From positions 1 through 34,323 of the IMG/VR virus record IMGVR_UViG_3300048852_000022: a stretch of DNA of 34,323 nucleotides, one strand, 5' to 3'. Below the pieces are notes generated by a model. It saw only the letters and a program-made list of their open reading frames with translations. It made no database searches and was not told the DNA's origin. Below are positions 1,628-27,394 of the stretch, piece by piece (position 1 is the first letter of the stretch; the number at the start of each line of letters is the position of its first letter). The DNA is from a virus. Lineage: Duplodnaviria > Caudoviricetes. Both the position numbers and the translations under genes were made by a program.

Positions 1628-2022
1628 CCATCCAGCACCGCACCGTCGACATCGAGGCATCGGCCAAGCTTTGGAGCGAGGGCCTGTCGGCGTCGCAGAT
1701 CGCCAGCAGATTTGGTGTCTCGCGAAACGTCGTCATCGGCATCGCCTATCGGAACCGCGACAGGTTCCCACCGCGCCAGAAGCGGAAACCGGCACCGAGG
1801 CGCGAGCCGACACGCCGGCCGCGCCAGCAAGCGCCGGAGCTCCTGGCGCAACCGGAGATCCCGGCGACCGCCTACGACGCCGAGCGACTCACACACGCAA
1901 AGCAACTCCACCAACTCTCGGCCGGCGAATGCTGCTGGCCTCTGAACACTGGGGGCCCGTACCTGTTCTGTGCGGCGGAAACGACGGGCCGCTACTGCCG
2001 AAACCACAAGACCAGAGCATAG
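1624..2022 (+). CDS. gcrA: GcrA cell-cycle regulator family protein
   Basis: N-terminal HTH (LWSEGLSASQIASRFGVSRNVVIGIAYR) and C-terminal C-x-WP...FC...YC-x-x-H motif characteristic of GcrA. ATGA overlap with the upstream gene. Confidence 0.85.
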   Translation: MTIQHRTVDIEASAKLWSEGLSASQIASRFGVSRNVVIGIAYRNRDRFPPRQKRKPAPRREPTRRPRQQAPELLAQPEIPATAYDAERLTHAKQLHQLSAGECCWPLNTGGPYLFCAAETTGRYCRNHKTRA

Positions 2023-2039
2023 CAAATCGAGGGATTAGG

Positions 2040-2660
2040 ATGCTGAGAACTGAATGGTACGCGATCAAGGCCCGGCCCGGCACCCAGCGCAAGGCAACGC
2101 CACGGGTAGGGGAGACGGAAGAACGAAAGGGCGAGTTCATCATCGAGCGCAGCCTTCGCGACGCCGGCTTCGAGGTGTTCATGCCCTCGACACAGATCAT
2201 CTACAAGCACCACAGAACGAAGAAGACGCTGGAGAAACGCACCCCCATGCTGGTCGGCTACGCCTTCGTGAATCGCCCGAGGAGCTTCTTCGATCTGTCT
2301 CAAGTCTATGGAGTCGGAGCGATTCTTGGGATTGCCGGTAGGCCGATGCAGATTGCAGATGACCTGATTCAGTCCTTGCGTGACGAAGAGGAAGAAAGCA
2401 TCGAGCGCGTCCATCGCGCTAAGCGTATGAGGGAGCGGCAGGAAGCGGTTGCCAACGGAAACGTGACAAAGAAGCAGTTGCGCGACATGTTCCCGTGCAA
2501 GTCTCTGGTTCGAATAACCGGTGATCATCAACTCCTCGGCGGCATGGTTGCCCGCGTTCTTGACGCAACGGGCCGAAAGACATTGAAAACAGTCGTGGAA
2601 ACTCTGGAAGGGCTCGTTTCTGTGGAAATTCCGGTTGAGTACGCCGAGAAAATTGCTTAA
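2040..2660 (+). CDS. NusG/RfaH-family transcription antiterminator (phage late regulator)
   Basis: NGN motifs WYAIKARP, GFEVFMP, PMLVGYAFV, VYGVGAILG and a KOW-like C-terminus (VRITGDHQLLGGMVARV). It occupies the lambda Q position. Confidence 0.88.
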   Translation: MLRTEWYAIKARPGTQRKATPRVGETEERKGEFIIERSLRDAGFEVFMPSTQIIYKHHRTKKTLEKRTPMLVGYAFVNRPRSFFDLSQVYGVGAILGIAGRPMQIADDLIQSLRDEEEESIERVHRAKRMRERQEAVANGNVTKKQLRDMFPCKSLVRITGDHQLLGGMVARVLDATGRKTLKTVVETLEGLVSVEIPVEYAEKIA

Positions 2661-2681
2661 ATTCCAGTGTCAAGTGATTTG

Positions 2682-2774
2682 TTTGACGCCTGTTCCTTTG
2701 GGGCTTCTATAGTCGTCCAAGAGGTGTCGCCCTTAAGCGGATGTGAATTACACCGCGTGGAGGCTTGTGCCTGA
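2682..2774 (+). promoter_or_regulatory. Candidate late promoter with leader hairpin
   Basis: TTTGAC (2682) ... CTATAG (2707) resembles the rhizobial sigma70 consensus, but the 19-nt spacer is long. It is followed by the hairpin GCGGATGT-GAATT-ACACCGC directly after the antiterminator gene. Confidence 0.4.
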
Positions 2775-3581
2775 ATGGCTTTCGTAAAGGGCGATACCGC
2801 ATATATCCCGTTGCAGAAATCTGCCGGCCGGAAGCGGCTCTTCGCCCTCGTCGACGTTGATGACCTGGAGCGCGTCGCCAGCCGAAAGTGGTGCGCTGCG
2901 CCATCTGGCAGAACGTTCTATGTCAGGGCGACATCGCTCGCCACGTTGCCGAAGCATCATAGCAGCCTCCATGCGTTCATCCTTCGCGTTGAGCCCGGCC
3001 AGCGTGTCGACCACGAAAACGGCAATGGGCTTGATTGCCGGAAGCGCAACCTTCGGCCGGCGTCTGCGACGGAGAATGCGCAGAACTCGTTCAAGCGGAT
3101 TGGTGAGACGACATCCAAATTCAAGGGCGTCACGCTGACCAGTTCCGGCCGCTGGGCAGCACACATCACCGTCAACGGTGAACCCTTGGTGGTCGGCCTG
3201 TTTGACGCGGAAGTTGAAGCGGCAATGGCCTATGACGAGGCCGCCAAACGACATTTCGGCGCCTTCGCCAAGACCAACGCGATGATGGGCCTGTTTGAGG
3301 CTGATGCCGCAGTCAGGGACAAGGCGGGGTTCGGCATCAAGGATGTGCGGAAGCTCGGCGAATTTCAGCACCGCCAGAAGGGCGACGCCCGATCGAATTT
3401 CGGCACTGTGATTGGACTCTCTCGCCACCAGCGCAAGGCTGGCGTGTTTCTGTACAAGCTCTCGACCGGCCGGCACGTTCCGGCCGCCGATTTCCTCGGC
3501 ACACATCCTTCCCCGGAAGAGATGGAGCGGATGAAAGACGAGTTGAAGACCAGAGAGCGGATGAAGAGAGCCGCCAGATAA
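2775..3581 (+). CDS. HNH endonuclease with AP2 DNA-binding domain (homing endonuclease type)
   Basis: HNH motif VDHENGNGLDCRKRNLR...ENAQN followed by AP2 SKFKGV...RWAAHITVNG...GLF..EVEAAMAYDEAA..HFG.FA.TN, plus a C-terminal extension. Confidence 0.9.
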   Translation: MAFVKGDTAYIPLQKSAGRKRLFALVDVDDLERVASRKWCAAPSGRTFYVRATSLATLPKHHSSLHAFILRVEPGQRVDHENGNGLDCRKRNLRPASATENAQNSFKRIGETTSKFKGVTLTSSGRWAAHITVNGEPLVVGLFDAEVEAAMAYDEAAKRHFGAFAKTNAMMGLFEADAAVRDKAGFGIKDVRKLGEFQHRQKGDARSNFGTVIGLSRHQRKAGVFLYKLSTGRHVPAADFLGTHPSPEEMERMKDELKTRERMKRAAR

Positions 3582-3596
3582 CCAATACGAGGGGAA

Positions 3597-3687
3597 GCCG
3601 CTGCGCCCCGACCTATGAGGAGCCTTGGCCACCTGAGGGTGACGCCGCCAAGGCCCAGCGGCCAACCGGGAGGGTAGCCCGGCACCA
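3597..3687 (+). ncRNA. Putative structured non-coding RNA element
   Basis: Nested stems: GCCGCTG (3597-3603)/CAGCGGC (3656-3662), GCCTTGGC (3622-3629)/GCCAAGGC (3647-3654), CACC-TGAG-GGTG, then the hairpin CCGGG-AGGGTAG-CCCGG ending in CACCA. Confidence 0.35.
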
Positions 3688-3693
3688 TTTCAT

Positions 3694-3766
3694 GTCGGCG
3701 TAGAGCAGCCCGGTAGCTCGCCAGCCTCATAAGCTCGAGGTCGCAAGCCCGATTCTGGCAGTTATG
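3694..3766 (+). pseudogene. Degenerate tRNA-Met (CAT), initiator-like D arm, 3' acceptor strand lost
   Basis: TA-GAGC-AGCCCGGTA-GCTC-G-CCAGC-CTCATAA-GCTCG-AGGTC-GCAAG matches the tRNA-fMet layout, with the anticodon CAT at 3728-3730. The T loop has decayed to CCCGATT, and there is no acceptor pairing or CCA. Confidence 0.7.
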
Positions 3767-4445
3767 TAGGTGGTTCAGGCTTTTTCAAAGACCGAAGGCG
3801 ACCGACGAGCGAACTATATTGGTAGACCGCCTTGAGAAGCTCTTTCGCGAGGTCAATCGCAATAGCCGCCTCTTCTTTGCCGATGTTGTCGTAATCTTTC
3901 GCTTCTACGTGAGCGGCGTCGTTCCCTAAGATTCTGAGTTCATCGGCGGCCTCCAGTAGCTCCATTGGGATTACCGCTACGTCTTTGAGGGCTGAAATTC
4001 TCTGCTTCAAGTTCCCTCCGGTTGCAGACCTATCTTGACAAAGCTCTTCGAGTACTCGGCGAACCATCAATGCAGACGCCTTGTAGGCACCTGCCGCGTG
4101 ACAGGTGACAGCCTCTTCGAGGCTGGAAAGAATGTTTGGAGGCAAGTTTGTGGCATCGAAATCGATGACTTCCGGTGGATAGGTTGTCAGGGTTTCGCTC
4201 TGCGCATCGAAGGCGACAAATACAAGCGCGCCACAGTCCGGGTTCGGGCATTTCCGGATACCCGCCTGGGAGTGCACTTGGCGGCTGGCAGCGGTGTTGC
4301 CAATTCGCTTGCTGACCGGTCCCCACACCACATCATTGCAGCCGTTGTAGCCATGGAAAGCGCCAGCGTGCCGACAAACAGGGCACCTTAAGTTGAAGAT
4401 CTTGGCTTCGCCCGATTTCACTCCTCCTTGTACAAAGAACTCCAT
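3762..4445 (-). CDS. DUF4145 domain protein with N-terminal Zn-ribbon (moron)
   Basis: CPVC...CPNPDC, then EAVTC...AYKASALMVRRVLEELC...GNLKQRI..L...LRILGNDAAH, typical of DUF4145 (HEPN-like). It is antisense to the late operon and has lower GC. Confidence 0.85.
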   Translation of the reverse strand: MEFFVQGGVKSGEAKIFNLRCPVCRHAGAFHGYNGCNDVVWGPVSKRIGNTAASRQVHSQAGIRKCPNPDCGALVFVAFDAQSETLTTYPPEVIDFDATNLPPNILSSLEEAVTCHAAGAYKASALMVRRVLEELCQDRSATGGNLKQRISALKDVAVIPMELLEAADELRILGNDAAHVEAKDYDNIGKEEAAIAIDLAKELLKAVYQYSSLVGRLRSLKKPEPPT

Positions 4446-6447: not shown

Positions 6448-7811
6448 ACCGACTGCGATTGGTGGTGAACAATGCTGTTCGCCGGCTTGATGCGATGTTC
6501 CCGGGCTTCTTCCCGGACGCAAAGCACAACCACTACAAGGACTTCGGCTATCCAGAGACGCTGAATTTTCAGCAGCTCTATGCGATGTACACCCGCAACG
6601 GCATCGCGCAGGCCGGCGTCAACAAGACCGTCCTGAAGACCTGGCAGGACAATCCGTTCCTCCTCGAAAAGGAACGAGACGGGTCCGAGGTCGGTCAATC
6701 GGACGAGACGACGCTTGAAAAGCAGATCCGCCAACGCTTCGACGACCTTCGCCTCTGGCCGAGGCTTTCCGAAGCGGACGGCATGTCGATGGTCGGCGCC
6801 TACTCGGGTGTCATCCTCAGGTTTGCCGATAGCAAGCTCTTCGAGGAGCCGGTTGATCGTGTTCCCGGTGGTCTCGACGGTCTCGTCGAGGTCATCCCAG
6901 CATGGGAGGGGCAGCTTACCGTTTCTCAGTGGGACACCGACGAGAGGTCCGAGAGCTACGGCCAGCCGAAGATGTTCCAATTCAATGAATCGGCCGTCGA
7001 CAGCAAGCAGCAGCCGCGCTCCTTCGTGGTGCATCCGGACCGCGTCATCATCTGGTCGAAGAATGGCACGGTCCACGGCAAGTCCATCCTCGAGCCGGGC
7101 TACAACGACCTTCTGACCCTTGAGAAGGTCAGCGGCGCCGGCGGCGAGGGCTTCTGGAAGAACGCCAAGTCCGCACCGGTGCTCGAAGTCGACCCCGAAG
7201 CGAAGCTGACCGAGATGGCCCGCATGATGGGCGTCCCGCTCGACGAGCTGATCGACAAGATGAACGACCAGGTCGAGGATTGGCAGAAGGGTTTCGACAA
7301 GCTGCTCATGGTGCAGGGGATGGAGGCCAAGACGCTTGGCATCACCCTGCCGTCGCCCGAGCACTTCTTCGCCATCGCCCTGCAGTCGTTCGCAGCCTCG
7401 ATCAACATGCCGGTCAAGATCCTCGTCGGGATGCAGACCGGCGAGCGCGCCAGCAAGGAAGACGCGGACGAGTGGGCGCTGACGAACATGTCGCGCCGCA
7501 ACAACTACGTCATCCCGAATATCCGGACCTTGGTGCAGCGCCTGGAACGCGTCGGCATTCTGCCCGAACGCGACTGGTTCGTCGACTGGACCGATCTGAC
7601 TGAGAGCTCGATGTCGGAAAAGATCGAGCGTGCCAACAAGATGGCCGAGACCAACCAGAAGATGGGCGACGTCTATGTCTTCACCGATGACGAGATCCGC
7701 CAGGTCGTCGGTTACGAGCCGCTGAAGGATTCCGAGAAGTACCGGAACGAGCCGACCGACGAAGAGACCGAAGGCGCTCTCGGCACGAAACCAAAGGACA
7801 TCGAAGAATGA
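6444..7811 (+). CDS. Portal protein (DUF1073-like)
   Basis: 455 aa directly after terL with ATGA overlap. Motifs YGQPKMFQFNE, VHPDRVII and IxxKILVGMQTGERAS..D. Confidence 0.85.
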   Translation: MNRLRLVVNNAVRRLDAMFPGFFPDAKHNHYKDFGYPETLNFQQLYAMYTRNGIAQAGVNKTVLKTWQDNPFLLEKERDGSEVGQSDETTLEKQIRQRFDDLRLWPRLSEADGMSMVGAYSGVILRFADSKLFEEPVDRVPGGLDGLVEVIPAWEGQLTVSQWDTDERSESYGQPKMFQFNESAVDSKQQPRSFVVHPDRVIIWSKNGTVHGKSILEPGYNDLLTLEKVSGAGGEGFWKNAKSAPVLEVDPEAKLTEMARMMGVPLDELIDKMNDQVEDWQKGFDKLLMVQGMEAKTLGITLPSPEHFFAIALQSFAASINMPVKILVGMQTGERASKEDADEWALTNMSRRNNYVIPNIRTLVQRLERVGILPERDWFVDWTDLTESSMSEKIERANKMAETNQKMGDVYVFTDDEIRQVVGYEPLKDSEKYRNEPTDEETEGALGTKPKDIEE

Positions 7812-8926
7812 AACACGTCCGAGTCAACGTTCGCAGCGTTGCGAACACGAAGGCTGTCCGGAAGGAAAAGCGCAACGGCCGTGACGTCGTCATCGTGCCC
7901 AGCGCCACGCTTCCCGACAACATAATCATGAACGGGATCATGTACCCCGCCGACGAGATCGGGAAGAGCTTTGCCACCCTCAACCGAACGCCAGCGCCGC
8001 TCGGGCATCCCATAATCAACGGCAAGTTCGTATCGGCCAGCGACCCGGAAGGCATCAATCTCGGCTACATCGGCGCATGGAACGAGAACGTCCGCCGGGA
8101 GAACGGCCGCGTCTTTCTCGACAAGGTCATCGACGTCGAGGTCGCCAACCGTTCGCAGGGCGGGAAGGACGTCCTGGCAGCCATCGAAAAGGGCGAGCCG
8201 GTCCACACGTCGACCGGGCTTCTCGCCAACCTTGAGGCCGTCGCCAACGCCTCCGATCACAAACACATCGCTCGCAACATCGTGTTCGACCACGACGCCA
8301 TCCTGTTGGGAGAGGCGGGCGCCGCTACGCCGGACCAGGGCGTCGGCATGCTGGTCAACGCCAATGGCGAGCAGGAAGAAATCGAGGTCATCAACTCCTC
8401 ACTTACCGAGGAAGCCGACCGAGAGATCGACTGGGCGGGCACCCGCCTGGTCGAAGCACTCAGGCGCCGGGAGAACATCGGCATCTGGGACAAAGTGAAG
8501 GCCGCGATCATGGAAGCCGTTGGCTCCGGGCGGGTACCCTCAACCAATCGAAAGGAAGACGACATGCCTGTCTCTGACGAGCAGTTCAAGTCGCTTTCCG
8601 ACGAGGTCAAAACCCTCTCGGAAGGCTTCAGCAAGATCGGCGAAACGATCTCCAACGCTGTCACCACGGCCCTCAAGCCGGTCCTCGACCAACAGGCCGA
8701 GATGGTCGCCAACCAGAAGGCCAAGGACGAGGCCGAGCACGCCGACCTGGTCACCAAGATCGTCAAGGCCAACGTCCTCGACGAGGAAACGGCCAAGGCA
8801 ACACCGCTCAACACGCTGCGCGCTCTCGCCAAGACCGCAGAACCGGGCAAAGCGGCTCCGCTGAACCCCGCGTTCAAGGGCAACAGCGGCGACAAGCCGA
8901 CCTACAAGCTGCCGGAGGGTGAATAA
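7808..8926 (+). CDS. Prohead protease/scaffold (DUF2213-like)
   Basis: Lies between portal and capsid. Protease-like N-terminus (PLGHP, STG, FDHDAILL..GAATP.QGVG) and a helical scaffold-like C-terminus with a probable internal start at 8564. Confidence 0.8.
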   Translation: MKHVRVNVRSVANTKAVRKEKRNGRDVVIVPSATLPDNIIMNGIMYPADEIGKSFATLNRTPAPLGHPIINGKFVSASDPEGINLGYIGAWNENVRRENGRVFLDKVIDVEVANRSQGGKDVLAAIEKGEPVHTSTGLLANLEAVANASDHKHIARNIVFDHDAILLGEAGAATPDQGVGMLVNANGEQEEIEVINSSLTEEADREIDWAGTRLVEALRRRENIGIWDKVKAAIMEAVGSGRVPSTNRKEDDMPVSDEQFKSLSDEVKTLSEGFSKIGETISNAVTTALKPVLDQQAEMVANQKAKDEAEHADLVTKIVKANVLDEETAKATPLNTLRALAKTAEPGKAAPLNPAFKGNSGDKPTYKLPEGE

Positions 8927-10850: not shown

Positions 10851-11342
10851 ATGGCAGGCTACGGTGCTGATGCCACGTTTCAGGCGTGGCTCGATGATAA
10901 CGGCTACACGCTGCCAGCCGGTGCGCCGTCGCTTGCCGTCCTTCGCAATCGTGGGAGCCAATACATCGACGCGGTGTATGGCTCCCGCTTCGTCGGCAGC
11001 GTTGCAGACGCGTTGCAGGAGCGTTGCTGGCCGCGCGAGGGCGCGATCGTCAGCGGCAAGCTTTTGCCGTCGGACTTGATCCCAGCCGCCGTGATCAACG
11101 CTTCGTACTACGCCGCCTATCAGGAAGCGGTGAAGCCTGGCTCACTCTCTGTCATCAGTACCTCTTCGGGCGCCGTGAAGCGAGTAAAGGTCGGGCAGAT
11201 CGAAAAGGAATACCAAACGGCGAAGGATAGCGACGGCACGGCCGCGTCCATCACGCCGCTCATCTCCATCGTTGACGGGATGCTGGCGCCGTATCTGCGC
11301 GACGACAGCGTCGTTTGCGTCGGCATCGCGTCGATTGGCTAG
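10851..11342 (+). CDS. Head-tail adaptor (DnaT-like_2 family type)
   Basis: Motifs YID..Y..RF.G, Q...WPR, IP.AV..A, VKRVKVG.IEKEY and ML.PYL, typical of head-tail connectors. Confidence 0.75.
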   Translation: MAGYGADATFQAWLDDNGYTLPAGAPSLAVLRNRGSQYIDAVYGSRFVGSVADALQERCWPREGAIVSGKLLPSDLIPAAVINASYYAAYQEAVKPGSLSVISTSSGAVKRVKVGQIEKEYQTAKDSDGTAASITPLISIVDGMLAPYLRDDSVVCVGIASIG

Positions 11343-11542
11343 GATTCGATCTTGTCGCGGTAATACCGCTTCATCTCATTCCAAAGGTCCGCAGGCATTT
11401 CGGGATCTAGACGAGTCCATATTTCCATCATCGCTTCGATCTTGGTTTTGTTCGTTGCGACCACCTCATCGTCAATTCGAACAGTAAAGGTCTTGGTGCC
11501 GGTTTCCGAACTGCCGTCTTCAATGAGCGAATACTGTGTCAT
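11339..11542 (-). CDS. Small antisense moron protein (67 aa)
   Basis: AAAAGGAGGG RBS before ATG (MTQYSLIEDG...). It fills the gap between two structural genes and is more AT-rich. Confidence 0.7.
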   Translation of the reverse strand: MTQYSLIEDGSSETGTKTFTVRIDDEVVATNKTKIEAMMEIWTRLDPEMPADLWNEMKRYYRDKIES

Positions 11543-11580
11543 GTGCCCTCCTTTTGGGAGCGAAATAAGGAGCACATCGC

Positions 11581-11946
11581 TTGGCAACATTCAACTACCA
11601 GGAGATGCAGACGGTAGCCGAAGAGCTCATCACCGAATTTGGCCAGGCCGGTACCGTGATGCGCATTTCAGAGCCGGACCCCGTCGAAGGCGGCGATCCT
11701 GTCGAAACCGCATACACGGCCACGCTGGTGCCGATGGCGTACAGCGCCCAAGAGATCGACGGTACCGAGATCTTGTCCGGCGACATGCAGATTTACATCT
11801 CGTCCGTCGGCCTCGCGATCGAGCCCAAGCCCGGCGACCTGGTCGCGGCGAGCGGCAAGACGTTCCGGGTGATCAAAGCAGACCCGAACAACTACGACGG
11901 CCTGACCAACGTCGTCTTCATCGTCCAGGGAAGGATTGCAGCATGA
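11581..11946 (+). CDS. Head closure / head-tail joining protein
   Basis: TTG start after AAGGAG. Motifs AEELI.EFGQ, IDGT.I.SGD and P.PGD......FRVI. Confidence 0.75.
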   Translation: MATFNYQEMQTVAEELITEFGQAGTVMRISEPDPVEGGDPVETAYTATLVPMAYSAQEIDGTEILSGDMQIYISSVGLAIEPKPGDLVAASGKTFRVIKADPNNYDGLTNVVFIVQGRIAA

Positions 11947-12104
11947 GCGTGCCCGCACAGGACTTCCTGAAACTCATGGAGGCGCCTGCATCGAAGATAT
12001 TTGCTGTCCTGGTCGACCTCTACGGACGTGAGATCGCCGACAAGGTCGCCAAGGAAGTTATCAAACCCGGTCTCGGCCCTACGGTCGACTGGCCCAAGTG
12101 GTGA
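11943..12104 (+). CDS. Small hypothetical protein (53 aa)
   Basis: ATGA overlap with the upstream gene; MSVPAQDFLKLM...VDWPKW; fills the gap in the operon. Confidence 0.6.
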   Translation: MSVPAQDFLKLMEAPASKIFAVLVDLYGREIADKVAKEVIKPGLGPTVDWPKW

Positions 12105-12115
12105 AAGGACCCGCT

Positions 12116-12277
12116 ATGAAAATCCGTTTTGTGAAGGACTACCAGCGCTTTGCCGTCGGCGACGTGATCGACGCGTCCGACCTGTCGGGCGGTCTTGCCC
12201 AGGGCCTGATCAATCTCGGCATCGCGGAGAAGATGCCCGAGGAGAAGGTTGCCACGAAGAAAGGCGACAAGGAATGA
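12116..12277 (+). CDS. Small phage protein (53 aa), not in the ORF track
   Basis: RBS GAAAGGA; MKIRFVKDYQRFAVGDVIDASDLSGGLAQGLINLGIAEK...; resembles small L9-N-like phage head-module proteins. Confidence 0.7.
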   Translation: MKIRFVKDYQRFAVGDVIDASDLSGGLAQGLINLGIAEKMPEEKVATKKGDKE

Positions 12278-12555
12278 ACAGGCGCTCGTTTCTCGGCTTC
12301 GCCGCCGGCGGTGCTGTGGCGGCTCCCGCAGCTATCCTCGTTGGTGAGCGTGCGGAAGGCTTCCCGAAGCCAGCAGCCATGACCGCAGCAGACGTCGCTC
12401 GCCGTCAAGCCCAACAGGTCAGCGTCACGGTCACGGGCGCTGATGGGGACGAGCGTATTCGTCGGCTCGTTCAGAAGGAAGTCCAGCGGGCAACGCTCGA
12501 GCACCAGCGCTCCAGCTTCGCCTTAAGTCGGCGCGACCGGTTGATGCGAGGCTGA
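12274..12555 (+). CDS. 93-aa protein with twin-arginine-like N-terminus and a tape-measure C-terminal-like motif
   Basis: ATGA overlap at 12274. It begins MNRRSFLGFAAGGAVAAPAA, and its C-terminal part VSVTVTGADGDERIRRLVQKEV resembles the end of the TMP. Confidence 0.7.
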   Translation: MNRRSFLGFAAGGAVAAPAAILVGERAEGFPKPAAMTAADVARRQAQQVSVTVTGADGDERIRRLVQKEVQRATLEHQRSSFALSRRDRLMRG

Positions 12556-12559
12556 TTGC

Positions 12560-13612
12560 GTGGCATCTCTTCGCCAGCAGCTCGACGCCCTCATCGAAGA
12601 GCTTTCCCCAGCCATGGAGAAGGCCTTCCGCGAGGCGATCGAGGACATCAAATCCGAGATCGTGCTGAAGGAAGTCGTCGAGCGGCTTGAACGCCGGGAC
12701 ATCGAGGGCGCCATTGCGGCGCTGCATATCGATCCCGCTGCGTTCCGGCCCTTCTCTGAGGCGATCCGGACAGCCTTCAACGCCGGCGGCCTCCTGGTCG
12801 CAAAGAACATGCCGCGTCTGTCCGATCCGATGGGCGGCCGTGTCGTGTTCAGGTGGGACGTGCAGAACCAACGCGCCGAACAGATCATCCGGGAAGCCTC
12901 GTCGACGATGATCACGCATGTGACTGAAGACACGAAGCAGATGGCCCGGGAGCGGATCGAATCCGGCTACGCCAAGGGGCAGGGGCCGAACACGATTGCT
13001 CTCGACATTGCCGGCCGGGTGAACAAGGTCACCGGACGCCGTGAGGGCGGATTGCTCGGCATGACGGCCCAGCTTGCCCGAACCGTCGAGAACGCGCGCA
13101 CGGCGCTGCTCTCGGGCGACGTAGAGGGCATGAAGCACTACCTGACGCTGACGCGCCGCGATAAGCGCTTCGACCGGCAGGTCGCCAAGGCTATTCGGGA
13201 AGGCAAGCCTCTCCCGGCCGACGCCGTGCAGAAGATCACCGGCCGGCTCGCTGACCGGTATGTCCAGCTCCGGGCCCAGACGATCGCCCGGACGGAAACG
13301 CAGTCGTCTGTCCATGCGGCCAAGCATGAGGCCTATCAGCAGGGGCTGGATCGCGCCGGCCGCGATGCCAGCCTTGTCACCCGTCGTTGGCGCTCGGTCG
13401 GCGACGGCCGCGTCCGCCACACGCACCAGGTCCTGAATGCAGAGGAAGTGACGGGCATGGACCTGCCATTCCAATCTCCCTCGGGCGCATTGCTGCGCTT
13501 CCCGGGCGATACCAGCCTCGGTGCTGGGGCGGCCGAGATCATCGGATGTCGGTGCCATGTCGAATATAACTTCGACTTCGCCGGGGAATATGCCAGATCG
13601 CGAGGCCGCTGA
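12560..13612 (+). CDS. Minor head morphogenesis protein (Mu gpF / SPP1 gp7 family)
   Basis: Motifs RAQTIARTET, W..VGDGRVRHTH..LN, PF...G..LRFPGD and IIGCRC. Confidence 0.9.
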   Translation: MASLRQQLDALIEELSPAMEKAFREAIEDIKSEIVLKEVVERLERRDIEGAIAALHIDPAAFRPFSEAIRTAFNAGGLLVAKNMPRLSDPMGGRVVFRWDVQNQRAEQIIREASSTMITHVTEDTKQMARERIESGYAKGQGPNTIALDIAGRVNKVTGRREGGLLGMTAQLARTVENARTALLSGDVEGMKHYLTLTRRDKRFDRQVAKAIREGKPLPADAVQKITGRLADRYVQLRAQTIARTETQSSVHAAKHEAYQQGLDRAGRDASLVTRRWRSVGDGRVRHTHQVLNAEEVTGMDLPFQSPSGALLRFPGDTSLGAGAAEIIGCRCHVEYNFDFAGEYARSRGR

Positions 13613-14091
13613 TGGCTGAGAACCTGTCGTTTGCGGCCCAGGTCTCCGAATGGGTGAAGGCAGAGCAAGAGCGCGAGGCCGCCGTCCTGCGCACCGCGGC
13701 GCAGATGGTCGCCAATAACGTCCGGACCTCTGTTGCCCAAGGCGGCCGCATTCCGGTCGTCACCGGCAACCTGAAGAACTCTCTGATGGCCTCGACCACG
13801 TCCATGCCGACGGTTGACCAGGGCGAGAAGCAATATCCGGATCAGAGCGGAGAGATCGAGCTGATCATTGCCAACCTCGATGTAGGCGAGACGCTCTATC
13901 TGGGATTTCAGGCCGCCTACGGGCCCCGCATGAACTACGGCTTCGTCGGCGAAGACAGCCTGGGTCGGCTCTACAATCAGGCTGGATACGGCTTTGTCGA
14001 CGCCGAGGCCCAGGACTGGCCGCAGACCGTCAAACGCGCGGAAGAGACGGTTCGCGGTCGCTTTGAAGCGGGTCCGTCCCCTCGGACATGA
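13612..14091 (+). CDS. HK97 gp10-like tail completion protein
   Basis: PVVTGNLKNS motif, AAYG.RMNYG, and position before the tail terminator. Confidence 0.75.
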   Translation: MAENLSFAAQVSEWVKAEQEREAAVLRTAAQMVANNVRTSVAQGGRIPVVTGNLKNSLMASTTSMPTVDQGEKQYPDQSGEIELIIANLDVGETLYLGFQAAYGPRMNYGFVGEDSLGRLYNQAGYGFVDAEAQDWPQTVKRAEETVRGRFEAGPSPRT

Positions 14092-14245
14092 TGATCAGGG
14101 CCTTCTGAAGCACGTCGAGATCCCTGATGGCTGCGGAAAGCACCTGCCGGCCGTTCTCAGTTTTCACGGTCTTGTTGAGCAGCAGCGATTGCGCCTCGTG
14201 CAAGAGGTCATGCACCTCGGTATCGCTGAGTGCTTTGTCGGCCAT
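14030..14245 (-). CDS. Small antisense hypothetical protein (71 aa)
   Basis: Helical, protein-like sequence MADKALSDTEVHDLLHEAQSLLLNK... It fills the 14092-14262 gap and overlaps the 3' end of the gp10-like gene. The RBS is weak. Confidence 0.55.
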   Translation of the reverse strand: MADKALSDTEVHDLLHEAQSLLLNKTVKTENGRQVLSAAIRDLDVLQKALIIMSEGTDPLQSDREPSLPRV

Positions 14246-16248: not shown

Positions 16249-19122
16249 ATGTCTGAAGCTACCCTTGGTTTCAAGATCGACAGTTCGCCGGCCGTCAAAG
16301 GCGCGGCTGACCTGGATCAGCTGACGGCAGCCGCCGGCCGCACTCAACAGGCTGTTGGAAAGCTCGAGAACGAGGTCGAACAGCTTGGCGGCGCGCTTGG
16401 GAAGGCAGGGCAGGGCGCTGGCAAGCTTAAGCCGCCGATCGACGATCTCGGCCGTTCGTTCGGCTCGCAGGATGAGCATGTGCGTGCCTTCCGGATGGAA
16501 GTCGAGCGGCTCACGCTGAAGTATCAGCCGTTGGCGAAAGCCACGCGCGATTACGAGGCCTCGATTGGTGAAATCCAGCGGGCGCACAAGGTCGGCGCGA
16601 TCACGGCGCAGGAGATGACGCAGGCGCTTGATCGTGAGCGCCAGGCCTATGAGCGCCTGAAGACGTCGGCGACGGCCGCCGGCGCTGCCGTGAAGGCTGC
16701 GAACCAGAACCGTGGCGGTGCGCAGGGCTTCAACTCTGCCAACGCCGCATTTCAGTTTCAGGACATCGCCGTCACCGCGGCTATGGGCATGAACCCGCTG
16801 ATGATCGGTCTACAGCAGGGCACGCAGCTCGCATCGGTGCTCGGATCGATGGAGCGGCCGGTGTCCGGGCTTGCTGCCGCCTTCGCATCGCTCATCAGCC
16901 CTGTTTCGTTGGTCACAATCGGGCTGACGGCAGGCACGGCCGCGCTGATCCAGTATTTCATGACGGCAGAGAGCGGCACGGACAAGACGAGCAAGCTCTT
17001 CGAAGAGCAGAACGACCTGATCCGACGCGCGGCTGCGCTTTGGGGCGACGCAGCGCCGCAGCTGAAGGCCTATGTCGACGAGCTCGATCGCGCCGACAAG
17101 ATCACTCAGGGCCGCGAAGCTGGGGAAATCCTCGCTGGCCGGGAGCTTGAAGGCCTTGGCGAGGAGTTGCAGGGTGTCAATCGTCAGTTCTCAGAAGCCG
17201 TTCGCGGCCTCCGTAGCATCGATGCTGATCCCGCGTTCATCCGTGATTTCTCGCAGGCCTTCGGTGACCTGCGCGAGCGCCTCGACGAGGGTACCGCATC
17301 GATAGCGGACATCAACAATGCTCAGCGCTTCTTGTCCGAAGCGGTGGATCGCTACGGGATCAAGTCGGTCCTCGGCTTCAGGGACGCATTCGACCAAATC
17401 ACAAAATCGATCCGAGATAGCATTGAGGCGTCTCGGGAGGCCCGCGCCGCGTGGATCGCGGGCATCGCTGGTGCCAGTAACGTGCAGGACATCATCTCCG
17501 GATCGTTCTTCACCGAGAACGGCAGGACGATGCGCACCGCGGACTTCATGCCGCGCAACCCGGGCGTTCCGACCAGCCGACCGAATATCGAATTGAGCGG
17601 AGATCCGGACGCCACGACCATCCTCAACTCCGATGGCCGCCTGACTTCCGTGCCGGTGCCAGGGCAGAAGCCGAACTTCTTCGAGCTCGAAGCACAGAAG
17701 GAGAAGGTCGACGACGTCACCAAGGCCTACCGCCAGGCGGCAGAAGCAAAGGCTGATTTCTGGCTCGACATCTCGTTCCAGGAACGGCAGGCCGAGCGCA
17801 GCGCCATGGACCGGCAGGTTGCGTCCACGCTCACGCGCTACGGCTTCAATGAGGACCTGAATTCGCCCGAGGCTGATGCAATCCGCCAAGGCCTTCGGCG
17901 GGAAGAAGCAAAGGACGCCTTCAAGGGGTTCTTCGACGGCATCCACCAGGAGGCGTGGGCGAACGGCGGCAAGATCGGCGATGCGATCGTCAAGTCGGCT
18001 CTGAGCGCTGCCCAGAAAGCCAGCGAAAAGGCTTGGGACGCCATCTTTGATCAGCTGGCCACCGCTGCTGCAAACTGGCTGACCGGAGGAAGCGGCAAGT
18101 CTTCCGGCGCGTCCGGCGTCGTCAGCAACATCCTCGGTGGGGCAGCGAACGACAATGCCACCTTTGCCGCTCCGGTAGGCGCCGTGAGCCGATCGTCGCT
18201 CGGCCCCGTGTCGGGGTCAGGTGCGGAACTCGCTTGGAACTTCTGGAAGTCGAAGGGGCTCGCCGATCATCAGGTCGCCGGCGTCCTCGGCAACATCAAG
18301 GCCGAGAGCGCCTTCAACCCGCTGGCCGTCGGCGACGGTGGCAATGCCTTCGGGCTCTACCAGCACAACGACCGCAGGAACAACCTGTTCAGTGCGATTG
18401 GAGGGAAGGGGAACCTGAGCAACGCTCTGGCGCAGCATGAATTTGCCTATAGCGAACTCATGGGGCCGGAAAACCGTGCATGGCAGGCGCTGACGAGAGC
18501 GGGCAGCACCCGCGAGGCCACGGCGGCGTTCGCCGGATTCGAACGCCCGTCCGGCTTCTCTTGGGGCAATCCAGAAGGCGCCCATAACTTCGCCGGACGG
18601 CTCAACGGCGCTGAAGAGGCTTTGGCGAAGTTCGGCGGTACCGCGCAGCAGGCGACGCAAGGCCTCGGCCAGTTCGGAAACGGATTGAGCCAGGTCGGTT
18701 CTTCGCTTGCAACGGGCGGATCAGGCGGGGGCTCTGGGTGGCTTTCCTTCCTGTCCGGAACGATCTTCTCCGGATCCGGCCAGTTGGCGAGGAGCGGGGG
18801 CATCGGTCTTTTCGCCAATGGCACGAACTATGCACCGGGCGGCCTGTCGATCGTCGGCGAGCGCGGTCCGGAGCTCGTCAATCTCCCGCAGGGCTCGCAG
18901 GTGTTCGACACCAACAGGAGCGCCCGGATGATGGCCGGAAACGGCAATAACAGCAACGCTCCGGCAAACCTCAACGTCAATGTGATCGGTGCCAACGGCG
19001 ATGAGCACGTCCGCGCCCTTGTACGGCAAGGCGTCGGGCAGGCGCTGTCTCAGTATAACGAGCAGCAGCGCCGCGTCGGCTTCGGGGAAACGCAGAAGCG
19101 ATTCGTAGCGCAGAAGGGCTGA
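16249..19122 (+). CDS. Tape measure protein with phage tail lysozyme domain
   Basis: 957 aa, Ala-rich, with TMP motif QFQDIAVT..MG.NPL.I.LQQG.Q. Lysozyme2-like segment AGVLGNIKAESAFNP...AFGLYQH...FERP and C-terminal FANG...VGERGPELV. Confidence 0.92.
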   Translation: MSEATLGFKIDSSPAVKGAADLDQLTAAAGRTQQAVGKLENEVEQLGGALGKAGQGAGKLKPPIDDLGRSFGSQDEHVRAFRMEVERLTLKYQPLAKATRDYEASIGEIQRAHKVGAITAQEMTQALDRERQAYERLKTSATAAGAAVKAANQNRGGAQGFNSANAAFQFQDIAVTAAMGMNPLMIGLQQGTQLASVLGSMERPVSGLAAAFASLISPVSLVTIGLTAGTAALIQYFMTAESGTDKTSKLFEEQNDLIRRAAALWGDAAPQLKAYVDELDRADKITQGREAGEILAGRELEGLGEELQGVNRQFSEAVRGLRSIDADPAFIRDFSQAFGDLRERLDEGTASIADINNAQRFLSEAVDRYGIKSVLGFRDAFDQITKSIRDSIEASREARAAWIAGIAGASNVQDIISGSFFTENGRTMRTADFMPRNPGVPTSRPNIELSGDPDATTILNSDGRLTSVPVPGQKPNFFELEAQKEKVDDVTKAYRQAAEAKADFWLDISFQERQAERSAMDRQVASTLTRYGFNEDLNSPEADAIRQGLRREEAKDAFKGFFDGIHQEAWANGGKIGDAIVKSALSAAQKASEKAWDAIFDQLATAAANWLTGGSGKSSGASGVVSNILGGAANDNATFAAPVGAVSRSSLGPVSGSGAELAWNFWKSKGLADHQVAGVLGNIKAESAFNPLAVGDGGNAFGLYQHNDRRNNLFSAIGGKGNLSNALAQHEFAYSELMGPENRAWQALTRAGSTREATAAFAGFERPSGFSWGNPEGAHNFAGRLNGAEEALAKFGGTAQQATQGLGQFGNGLSQVGSSLATGGSGGGSGWLSFLSGTIFSGSGQLARSGGIGLFANGTNYAPGGLSIVGERGPELVNLPQGSQVFDTNRSARMMAGNGNNSNAPANLNVNVIGANGDEHVRALVRQGVGQALSQYNEQQRRVGFGETQKRFVAQKG

Positions 19123-25681: not shown

Positions 25682-26599
25682 TCAAAGAAGCTTGGGGTTG
25701 ACCCAGTACTGGCCACCGTCGCGGGAGGTCCACCCGGTGACATCGGGCCGGTCGGCAAAATACTGAAACTTGGTTGGGCGCTCCCGCACGAGTGCCCAGC
25801 CGTTTGCGGCAAAAAGCTCGAGGAGTTGCCCTTCGATCAGACGTGAATGTGTACCTACAAAAAGGCGCCGGACTTTCGAATTAAGCAGCTCGATGGCAGA
25901 AGCCAGAACCGTCGCCTCGACGCCTTGAATGTCAACATGAACGAGGTCGAAGGTCTCTCCGTCAATCACATCGGCGAGCGTGATCGCGGTTACTTCCTCG
26001 TTTTCAACGACACGACCGACATAATCTACTCCGGTGTTCTCCTCGACGGCCTGGCCGCCGTTCTGGCCGAAGTCGGTCACTTTCGGGAAATAGAGAGTGC
26101 CTGGATGAGAGGCGACCGCTGCCTTGATGGTGCGAACCGTCGCCGGATCGACGCCATTGTCAGCCAAATGCTGCGGGATGAGGTCGTACAGAGTTTGGCT
26201 GGCTTCGACGGCGGTAATGTAGGGGGTGAGGCCGCGGCGCGTAGCGTTGATATGTGCCGCGCAGCTCCATGGCGCATAAGAAGCACCAATCTCGGCCATT
26301 CTGAACGTGTCGCGGCTGTTGTTGATCGCGTCGAAGAGAACGAAGTATTCGATTGCCTCGGCTCGTAGGGCATCGTCGGGGATCGGTAGGTCTTTGATCA
26401 CCCAACCGTTCATATGGATTGCCCATGGATGGTATTCCGATCGAGCCTTGATACCCATGAAGTCGGTTATCATGCCTGGAGTGCCGTCAGTCTCCACGTG
26501 GTACGAGGCAAACAACTCTCTGTCGGACACCTCCCACCCCCCGAAAAAGTCATCGAGGAGGGCGGCTCGGGACGCGATGGCAGCATCTACGCGGGACAT
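25682..26599 (-). CDS. FkbM-family SAM-dependent methyltransferase
   Basis: Motifs AEIGASYAPWS, ITAVEA, IKAAV and FDLVHVDIQGVE..VL. Confidence 0.85.
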   Translation of the reverse strand: MSRVDAAIASRAALLDDFFGGWEVSDRELFASYHVETDGTPGMITDFMGIKARSEYHPWAIHMNGWVIKDLPIPDDALRAEAIEYFVLFDAINNSRDTFRMAEIGASYAPWSCAAHINATRRGLTPYITAVEASQTLYDLIPQHLADNGVDPATVRTIKAAVASHPGTLYFPKVTDFGQNGGQAVEENTGVDYVGRVVENEEVTAITLADVIDGETFDLVHVDIQGVEATVLASAIELLNSKVRRLFVGTHSRLIEGQLLELFAANGWALVRERPTKFQYFADRPDVTGWTSRDGGQYWVNPKLL

Positions 26600-26620
26600 G
26601 AAAATTATCCTGTTTTCTAG

Positions 26621-27394
26621 TTAAAGGAGGCCCTGATTGACGAGGTCGAACACGTCTTCGGCGGTCCTCATTTTCATCCTTAGAGAAGCAAGAGCATTTT
26701 TAGCCCCAACCGGCAAGGGAACGGTGTCGCCATTCGAAGGATCCACCACAGCCAATAGACCCGTCATGGTCATGATGCGAGCTAGATACTCTTCGGGGTC
26801 CATTTTCAGATGGTGGACGATTGCGCGCTCGTTGAACTCAAAGAAGAGTGTAGGTCTGTGCTTTAGAAGAGTCTTGTGAGCGCCTTCGATCGCAAACATT
26901 TCATATCCTTCGATGTCGATCTTGATGAAGTCGACGAACGGCAGCATGTGAAATTCGGAAAAGGCATCAATACTCGTCATCTTCGCGTCGATACCGTCGT
27001 TAGACTGCGAGACGTGATTTTGTGCTGAAGCGGTGTCGCTGGTCGCAAACTTTACGGTTCCGACGGTTTTGCCAACCGCGAGAGGTTGAAGGGAAATTTG
27101 TTTCCAGCCCGAGGCTCTGGAAACATTCTCTTTCATGTGCTCATAGGCAGTCGGTGTAGGCTCAAACCCGATGACCTTGCTGCCCGGACAGATTTCGGCA
27201 ATCAACAGGGTGCTGAGACCGATGTTCGCGCCAATATCTAGAGATATGTGAATGTCCTTGAAACTGACGAGGCGGTACAGGTAATTCGCCAGGCCCCCAA
27301 GGTCATGATCTGGCAGAGTTTTGAAATAACTATCGTCCGGGTTTCCCTGAATCTCATAGGTGGTCCTGAATCCCCGAAACGACTTCAAATTCAT
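26621..27394 (-). CDS. FkbM-family SAM-dependent methyltransferase
   Basis: Motifs LDIGANIGL, VIGFEP, LAVG and VDFIKIDIEGYE..AIEGA..TL..HRP.LFFEFN. Confidence 0.93.
   Translation of the reverse strand: MNLKSFRGFRTTYEIQGNPDDSYFKTLPDHDLGGLANYLYRLVSFKDIHISLDIGANIGLSTLLIAEICPGSKVIGFEPTPTAYEHMKENVSRASGWKQISLQPLAVGKTVGTVKFATSDTASAQNHVSQSNDGIDAKMTSIDAFSEFHMLPFVDFIKIDIEGYEMFAIEGAHKTLLKHRPTLFFEFNERAIVHHLKMDPEEYLARIMTMTGLLAVVDPSNGDTVPLPVGAKNALASLRMKMRTAEDVFDLVNQGLL

Follow-up and report, generated by a model that had tools for sequence, protein, structure and literature searches.

The C-terminal ends of tape measure proteins (TMPs) are reported to nucleate tail assembly and to sit as trimers in the baseplate (PMC11445458). 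In phage T5, TMP cleavage has been placed after R1127; the C-terminal piece forms the baseplate-cup trimer and is expelled first, and its release into the periplasm has been proposed (PMC10038345). The site is disputed in a published reply, which points to an earlier V1148 assignment and describes R1127 as a trypsin site (PMC11937520). A trimeric C-terminal TMP helix is also described in JBD30, DT57C and Ur-lambda (PMC11445458, PMC10713586, PMC12617516). In lambda, six copies of gpH* are counted and only three C-terminal pieces are resolved (PMC12617516); the maturation site of the lambda TMP is reported as unknown.

Tab is reported to act via the TMP's C-terminal region, and anti-Tab is encoded in the late operon (PMC10884400). 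Through mimicry of the tail tube protein, DSAD1 traps DSR2 (PMC10973363). Two other factors concern the TMP: Avs18 is reported to sense a central segment and not the C-terminal end (bioRxiv 10.64898/2026.01.04.697583), and SNIPE associates with the TMP at injection (review PMC13434031).

Here we describe a small phage gene that almost certainly encodes a diverged homolog of the whole C-terminal piece of a TMP, residues 855-957. It lies in a window of 34,323 nt (the whole stretch of DNA that was analysed), a single contig of a phiLM21-like temperate siphophage of Sinorhizobium. The window encodes terminases, portal, capsid, Ad1, Hc1, MuF, neck, terminator, tail tube and chaperones, together with the TMP, distal tail, hub, DUF6950, central fibre, tail fibre and endolysin. 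The relevant features are the following:

12116-12277, plus strand: upstream phrog_829 gene (53 aa), whose stop overlaps the start codon of the small gene (ATGA, 12274-12277)
12274-12555, plus strand: the small gene (93 aa), almost certainly a stand-alone paralog of the TMP C-terminus, with a twin-arginine-type leader; homolog of phiLM21_p049
12274-12345, plus strand: leader of the small protein, residues 1-24, an N-R-R-S-F-L motif and 20 uncharged residues; predicted Tat-type signal or signal anchor
12298-12351, plus strand: FAAGG...VGER, residues 9-26, overlapping the leader and in exact register with TMP residues 855-872
12415-12492, plus strand: residues 48-73, covering a strand-like stretch, the GADGDE turn and the first part of the long helix, with 12 of 26 residues shared with TMP residues 907-932
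12560-13612, plus strand: MuF-like head morphogenesis gene, beginning 4 bases past the small-gene stop; the constant downstream neighbour
16249-19122, plus strand: the TMP (957 aa; phrog_19914; PF06791, PF18013)
18811-19122, plus strand: C-terminal piece of the TMP, F855 to stop; putative source of the small gene, its profile aligning to T5 pb2 from R1127
18967-19044, plus strand: TMP residues 907-932, the stretch cited in the original prediction

The small gene thus stands apart from the TMP, 6.3 kb upstream of its C-terminal end. The ATGA overlap with the phrog_829 gene implies translational coupling and, as a scan of 11200-12700 gave no promoter or terminator match, late, coupled expression appears likely. 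Among the sequencing runs listed, there was no RNA dataset carrying the gene. Its GC3 is 0.68, against 0.72-0.87 in seven other stretches measured. The window has other features of note: residues 659-795 of the TMP, ahead of its C-terminal piece, form a phage tail lysozyme domain (PF18013); two tandem methyltransferase-like genes (phrog_8156, 25682-27394, minus strand) follow the tail fibre; and the virion operon holds a conserved minus-strand gene (phrog_29458, 14030-14245). Two further ORFs, one of 83 aa on the minus strand (11339-11590) and one of 53 aa (11943-12104), have no family match.

The original prediction, made from the sequence of the window, was that the small protein ends with a stretch aligned without gaps to the TMP tail, with well-diverged DNA. 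The 12 identities in 26 residues were reproduced exactly, and the underlying DNA is identical at 44 of 78 bases (19, 17 and 8 of 26 at the three codon positions), with the third base common to only 3 of the 12 identical residues. The stretch is not the end of the protein: 20 further residues follow, with a final MRG against QKG in the TMP. The likeness also spans the N-terminal part, where FAAGG...VGER faces FANG...VGER. BLASTP aligned residues 3-78 to TMP residues 848-937 (27 of 90 identical, E 1e-5). The Smith-Waterman score of 65 was reached by none of 2000 shuffles (mean 35.6, maximum 64), and the TMP was the best non-self match among 647 six-frame segments of the window, the runner-up scoring 42. 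Taken alone, the protein matched no PHROG family. A profile search of 1.84 billion proteins gave 30 matches, with no TMP at E 0.001, and a search for longer homologous proteins gave none among 4905 candidates; the proof of homology therefore rests on tests at the level of the family.

These tests used an alignment of 39 members, nine of which match phrog_19914, the family of the window TMP, at E up to 0.5 (best: P0050, E 1.1e-10; P0041, E 3.4e-10). When the family profile was run against 13,290 six-frame locus segments, the only non-family matches besides TMP C-terminal ends (E 1.4e-5 to 2.8e-3) were three RR leaders of generic type and a single weak, false one. HMMs built from TMPs only, either 14 near or 57 distant ones, scored 22 and 17 of 40 members, respectively, above all 2000 shuffles; the window protein itself reached 16.0 and 16.8 bits, with shuffle maxima of 7.3 and 8.9. 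In hhalign, a 29-member subset enriched for the GAxGD type aligned to 65 TMP C-terminal ends over 76 columns (probability 92.9, E 3.7e-7). Two members, P0070 and P0076, consist of the leader and nearly the entire TMP piece up to the final QKG, with 41 identities each and alignment scores of 150 and 141 against shuffle maxima of 67 and 54. The proposed homology to the TMP C-terminus is thus longer and stronger than first claimed. The GAxGD motif singled out at the time is less general: it is retained in just 20 of 50 members, the second GExGPE in 12 and the basic C-terminal end in 44.

Several candidates were set aside. P0054 and P0060, two long profile-search matches, were discarded as repetitive proteins whose matched part spans just 30-46 residues; P0062, which resembles a generic RR leader, was used as a control; ORFs in L025, L037, L044 and L045 were rejected as family members, and L200 lacks the family pattern.

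The small protein has neither the long helical tube-spanning body of a TMP nor the gene position between tail assembly chaperone and distal tail gene; as judged from sequence, it is a paralog of the TMP piece and not a TMP. AlphaFold models of the two are weak (pLDDT 63.6 for the small protein, 56.4 for the TMP C-terminal piece); that of the small protein shows a long helix at residues 56-92 and a passenger without confident globular fold. Foldseek found no match in the PDB at E 0.001 for the model of the TMP piece. Among solved structures there was no meaningful match for the family profile or for the single TMP piece, and the ESM Atlas gave no usable match for P0001 and 0.83 leads only for P0070.

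The profile of TMP C-terminal ends, by contrast with the single piece, aligned to solved TMPs: 25vf (E 0.003), DT57C 8hqo residues 1135-1217 (E 0.01) and T5 pb2 residues 1127-1209 (E 0.042). Since these are the TMP C-pieces, the small protein would correspond to that piece, from TMP F855 onward. The FAxGG..GE.GPE motif found near TMP C-terminal ends (18811-18873) aligns exactly at the cut proposed for T5 pb2 after R1127. On this basis, the bond between F855 and A856 is a testable candidate for the site of TMP maturation, both in this phage and in many siphophages; the position in T5 is itself disputed.

The N-terminus of the small protein reads MNRRSFLGFAAGGAVAAPAA. A Tat motif is defined as Z-R-R-X-phi-phi at the boundary of n- and h-regions (PMC13673990). 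The Tat-like leader of the original prediction proved to be a conserved, twin-arginine and hydrophobic element that TMPs lack: RR is found at the leader register in 37 of 38 family members and in 0 of 65 TMPs, and 37 of 38 combine it with 13 or more uncharged residues, a count that leans high, as the family was gathered with profiles dominated by the leader region. In the window protein, residues 5-24 are uncharged with a mean hydropathy of 1.74; at the same 20 positions the family averages 1.67 (minimum 1.06, 31 members scored) and the TMPs 0.39 (maximum 0.9). Against curated Tat profiles, the leader stays below cut-off (PF10518, 16.3 of 22.7 bits; TIGR01409, 15.2 of 16.7 bits); 13 of 39 members match TIGR01409 at E up to 1.

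Leader and TMP motif share the FAxG..GE register. With F taken as position 1, the GE pair has its G at position 16 in 55 of 65 TMPs and 22 of 38 members, and at 15 in 11 more members. The HMM of distant TMPs scored all 38 family N-termini (1.3-17.3 bits) above all eight generic RR leaders (0.0 or less). On the best reading, the leader is a former TMP motif that was reshaped into something like a signal peptide by gain of RR and hydrophobicity; in the members that have a second GExGPE, the latter would represent a younger TMP copy behind the leader. Altogether, the small protein is probably targeted to the membrane or to Tat.

Co-variation of the pair was observed by TMP subtype and not on a finer scale. 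Among 33 distinct pairs of small protein and TMP, 30 have a TMP of subtype A (GAxGD.H) and three of subtype B (VD..GN). All 30 cargos (the TMP-like parts) of subtype A phages score higher against A, one only marginally; in the three subtype B phages, one cargo is clearly B, one weakly so and one not. Applied to 52 cargos, the subtype HMMs assigned 26 to A, 4 to B, 22 to neither and none to both. P0073, from a B phage kept out of training, scored 15.5 against B and nothing against A. Within subtype A, scores of cognate pairs equal those of non-cognate ones: the TMP C-terminal end is near identical across these phages, and unlike alleles of the small gene stand beside identical TMP ends. The pattern fits more than one recruitment from the TMP, not tight co-evolution, with thin numbers and no tree behind it.

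Selection was estimated by dN/dS, here the approximate measure of pooled pairwise Nei-Gojobori counts. The gene as a whole gives 0.36 in each of the two allele groups, which comprise 14 and 12 sequences. Constraint is strongest in residues 2-26, with 0.064 in the window's group, 0.25 in the other and 0.12 over 36 alleles; residues 48-73 give 0.34 and 0.29 in the two groups, and the cargo ranges over 0.25-0.34. For comparison, MuF has 0.09 and the TMP C-terminal end 0.25 and 0.21. Column invariance of the family alignment was set aside as evidence, being partly built in by the search pattern. In 41 distinct coding sequences the frame stays open for 70-103 codons, with stops in the other frames in 24-41 of the 41. 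With dN/dS well below 1, this is a real gene under purifying selection, and it very probably encodes a functional protein.

In 24 of 25 first loci, the small gene precedes MuF within the virion operon. Searching from MuF returned 78 loci, two of which had no 5' end and were excluded; 39 of the remaining 76 carry the gene. Among 53 distinct close-relative loci (MuF at least 84%, window included), it is present in 36 and absent from 17, from which we infer that it is non-essential. Close homologs belong to Sinorhizobium meliloti, S. medicae and Ensifer; GTDB genomes contain three members (S. medicae, Ensifer sp., Rhizobium subbaraonis), and named protein matches add Rhizobium spp. and Agrobacterium.

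The Ad1-MuF stretch, which includes Hc1 and phrog_829 and spans 11339-12277 in the window, is a hotspot for accessory inserts of many different kinds, none of them linked to the small gene. Presence of the small gene showed no link to minus-strand ORFs of this stretch (8/8 vs 16/15, Fisher p 1.0). Between Ad1 and Hc1, many relatives encode a conserved hydrophobic peptide of 53 aa on the minus strand. In L048, the slot before MuF holds an unrelated small protein with a C-terminal hydrophobic stretch (7716-7997), without PHROG match. Possible insertions were noted in one prophage contig where MuF was matched in two separate pieces (L104 and L108), and in L024, with an extra kilobase between MuF and the neck gene (1775-3895).

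The small gene would accordingly appear as an optional, remodelled duplicate of the last ~100 TMP codons, in about two thirds of this group of rhizobial temperate phages. We tentatively propose that its product, made late and directed to the membrane, serves as bait for factors, Tab-like or of the host, that block or sense the TMP C-terminal end by binding to it. The small protein would be translated by coupling to the upstream gene, likely alongside the late proteins. Its leader would be recognised by Tat or inserted as a signal anchor, and the protein would likely be held at the inner membrane. There it could bind the Tab-like tail-assembly blocker of a rival prophage, or a host sensor, while the membrane tether would keep the copy out of the phage's own tail tips and away from the true TMP. 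The decoy imagined in the original prediction has a plausible target, since the TMP C-terminal region is where Tab reportedly exerts its effect (PMC10884400); more generally, an optional, late and variable copy of a surface attacked by a known blocker looks like counter-defence. Two other functions fare less well: the 17 of 53 close relatives without the gene speak against a tether on which tail-tip assembly depends, and late-operon coupling with no promoter found argues against an exclusion role expressed by the lysogen. A decoy for Avs18 was rejected, as Avs18 reads the central TMP segment; nor does SNIPE fit as a target, its action at injection coming before late expression. Against the bait stand the lack of a tab/atab-like link between the gene and its minus-strand neighbours (p 1.0) and the consideration that full periplasmic export would remove it from cytoplasmic targets, together with the Tat profile scores below cut-off and the lower GC3 of the gene.

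A leader more constrained than the TMP-like part (0.06 against 0.34) and the 22 of 52 cargos matching neither subtype would also fit a protein in which only the leader matters: a small membrane peptide or Tat-interacting late factor, acting for example in lysis timing or envelope stress, with an eroding relic for cargo. Lineages indeed retain different TMP motifs, and in L048 an unrelated small hydrophobic protein fills the slot. We nevertheless consider this somewhat unlikely, because the cargo itself is under purifying selection, ends in a TMP-like basic stretch in nearly all members and has a recognisable TMP subtype in 30 of 52 cases, never in conflict with the phage's own TMP in those tested. 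The protein might otherwise be a weapon against competing phages, occupying the TMP site in nascent tail tips or blocking the ejected TMP C-piece in the periplasm. The nucleating trimers of TMP C-terminal ends (PMC11445458), the release proposed for the T5 piece into a compartment that a Tat substrate would reach (PMC10038345) and the hotspot character of the slot all suit such a weapon; it remains unlikely, as coupling on both sides within the late operon, with no promoter or terminator, makes synthesis by a lysogen improbable, and the closest target would be the phage's own TMP, with its C-terminal end near identical across these phages.

Assistance to the phage's own tail assembly seems to us likewise unlikely, whether as an extra C-piece of the tail tip, as a membrane tether on which the tip is assembled or as another substrate of the TMP maturation protease, cut between F9 and A10. 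It agrees with the position in the virion operon, with the TMP-like end, with a protein that after nine residues begins at the position aligning with the proposed R1127 cut of T5, and with the surplus of lambda gpH* over resolved C-pieces (PMC12617516). It is at odds with the 17 close relatives that do without the gene, with dissimilar alleles found next to TMP ends that are identical, with cognate pairs that score no higher than non-cognate ones, and with the dispute over the T5 site, V1148 in the earlier assignment (PMC11937520). Finally, the lower GC3, the divergent cargos and the failure of the window protein alone to match a family might suggest that a partial duplication of the TMP left a remnant without function, or that the resemblance is due to chance. 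The former is already contradicted by the selection data, that is by dN/dS and by frames kept open where the other frames have stops, and homology at the family level is highly significant; this explanation is very improbable.

Beyond the family, two proteins appear to share the design of an RR leader followed by a virion piece. The 80-aa product of L096 (P0064, 7755-7997), in the slot before MuF, has a separate conventional RR leader and then a TMP-like FAVGG..GPE; a search of viral contigs found no P0064 relatives carrying this motif. In L199, an unrelated phage, a 112-aa RR-leader protein (8001-8339) between terminase and portal-like genes resembles the C-terminal end of the phage's own 822-aa protease-capsid protein (11072-13540; pairwise E 8e-5, score 59 against a shuffle maximum of 43). 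When six RR ORFs were scanned against the proteins of their own loci, the L096 protein did not score above its shuffles and that of L235 turned out to be a further family member; those of L037 (10001-10483), L109 (13975) and L113 (12629) had no match to own-locus proteins. One may imagine that phages have, time and again, made decoys by placing parts of their own virion genes behind a twin-arginine leader, that the TMP branch was re-copied from at least two subtypes, and that a blocker or sensor bound to the bait in the cytoplasm is carried by the host Tat machine to the membrane or across it, which would dispose of the immune protein; we regard this general scheme as unlikely.

That no description of such a protein was known still holds for the literature covered, which included few subscription papers and no supplements: we found no published TMP mimic or decoy, phage twin-arginine anti-defence or truncated structural paralog. 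The available text of EVADES (10.1101/2025.06.06.658234) and of a counter-defence review (PMC13728456) does not describe one, and the main text of a survey of phiLM21-like prophages (PMC12429752) mentions neither twin-arginine nor p049. The small gene would thus found an undescribed family of phage proteins with a traceable origin, in which a tail-protein motif became a signal-like leader with its register kept. If it does act as bait, it predicts a so far unknown defence of Rhizobiaceae aimed at the TMP C-terminal end, for which the small protein would serve as a probe. As close S. meliloti prophages differ naturally in whether they carry the gene, and phiLM21 is a cultured phage, it is one of the easier leader-plus-virion-fragment members to test.

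Set against known systems by description, the small gene is a variant of the mimic type: not a TMP, not a proven Tat substrate and not anti-Tab. Its only annotated phage match is phiLM21_p049 (AII27800.1) of Sinorhizobium phage phiLM21, an ortholog (65.5% over 87 residues) in the same slot before head morphogenesis, annotated as hypothetical protein only and, at 103 aa, with a longer tail than the 93 aa of the window protein. With the C-pieces of TMPs (T5 pb2C, PDB 7ZHJ; DT57C, 8HQO; lambda gpHC; JBD30 gp46; phrog_19914) it shares the order of motifs, AxGG..GE.GPE, strand, helix and basic end, and nearly the length, 84 residues after F9 against 92 in T5 pb2C. It differs from them in being an optional gene of its own, with a hydrophobic first motif bearing RR and a shorter linker. 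Compared with Tat signal peptides (PF10518 / TIGR01409), N-R-R-S-F-L agrees with Z-R-R-X-phi-phi and is followed by a moderately hydrophobic uncharged stretch, whereas the n-region has two residues, the h-region appears to be of TMP-motif origin and no globular fold was predicted with confidence for the passenger.

Anti-Tab of Pseudomonas phage JBD26 is non-essential, belongs to the late operon and protects tail assembly (PMC10884400); the small gene is likewise optional and coupled. Anti-Tab lies between terminase genes beside a minus-strand tab, while the small gene precedes MuF and showed no link to a partner on the minus strand, and the available description presents anti-Tab neither as TMP-derived nor as leader-bearing (PMC10884400). 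DSAD1 of phage SPbeta is, like the product of the small gene, a small phage protein resembling a tail structural protein, and it neutralises a sensor (PMC10973363). What DSAD1 mimics is the tail tube protein, and its binding in the pocket of DSR2 has been demonstrated, whereas the small protein is by all indications a sequence paralog of the TMP equipped with a leader.
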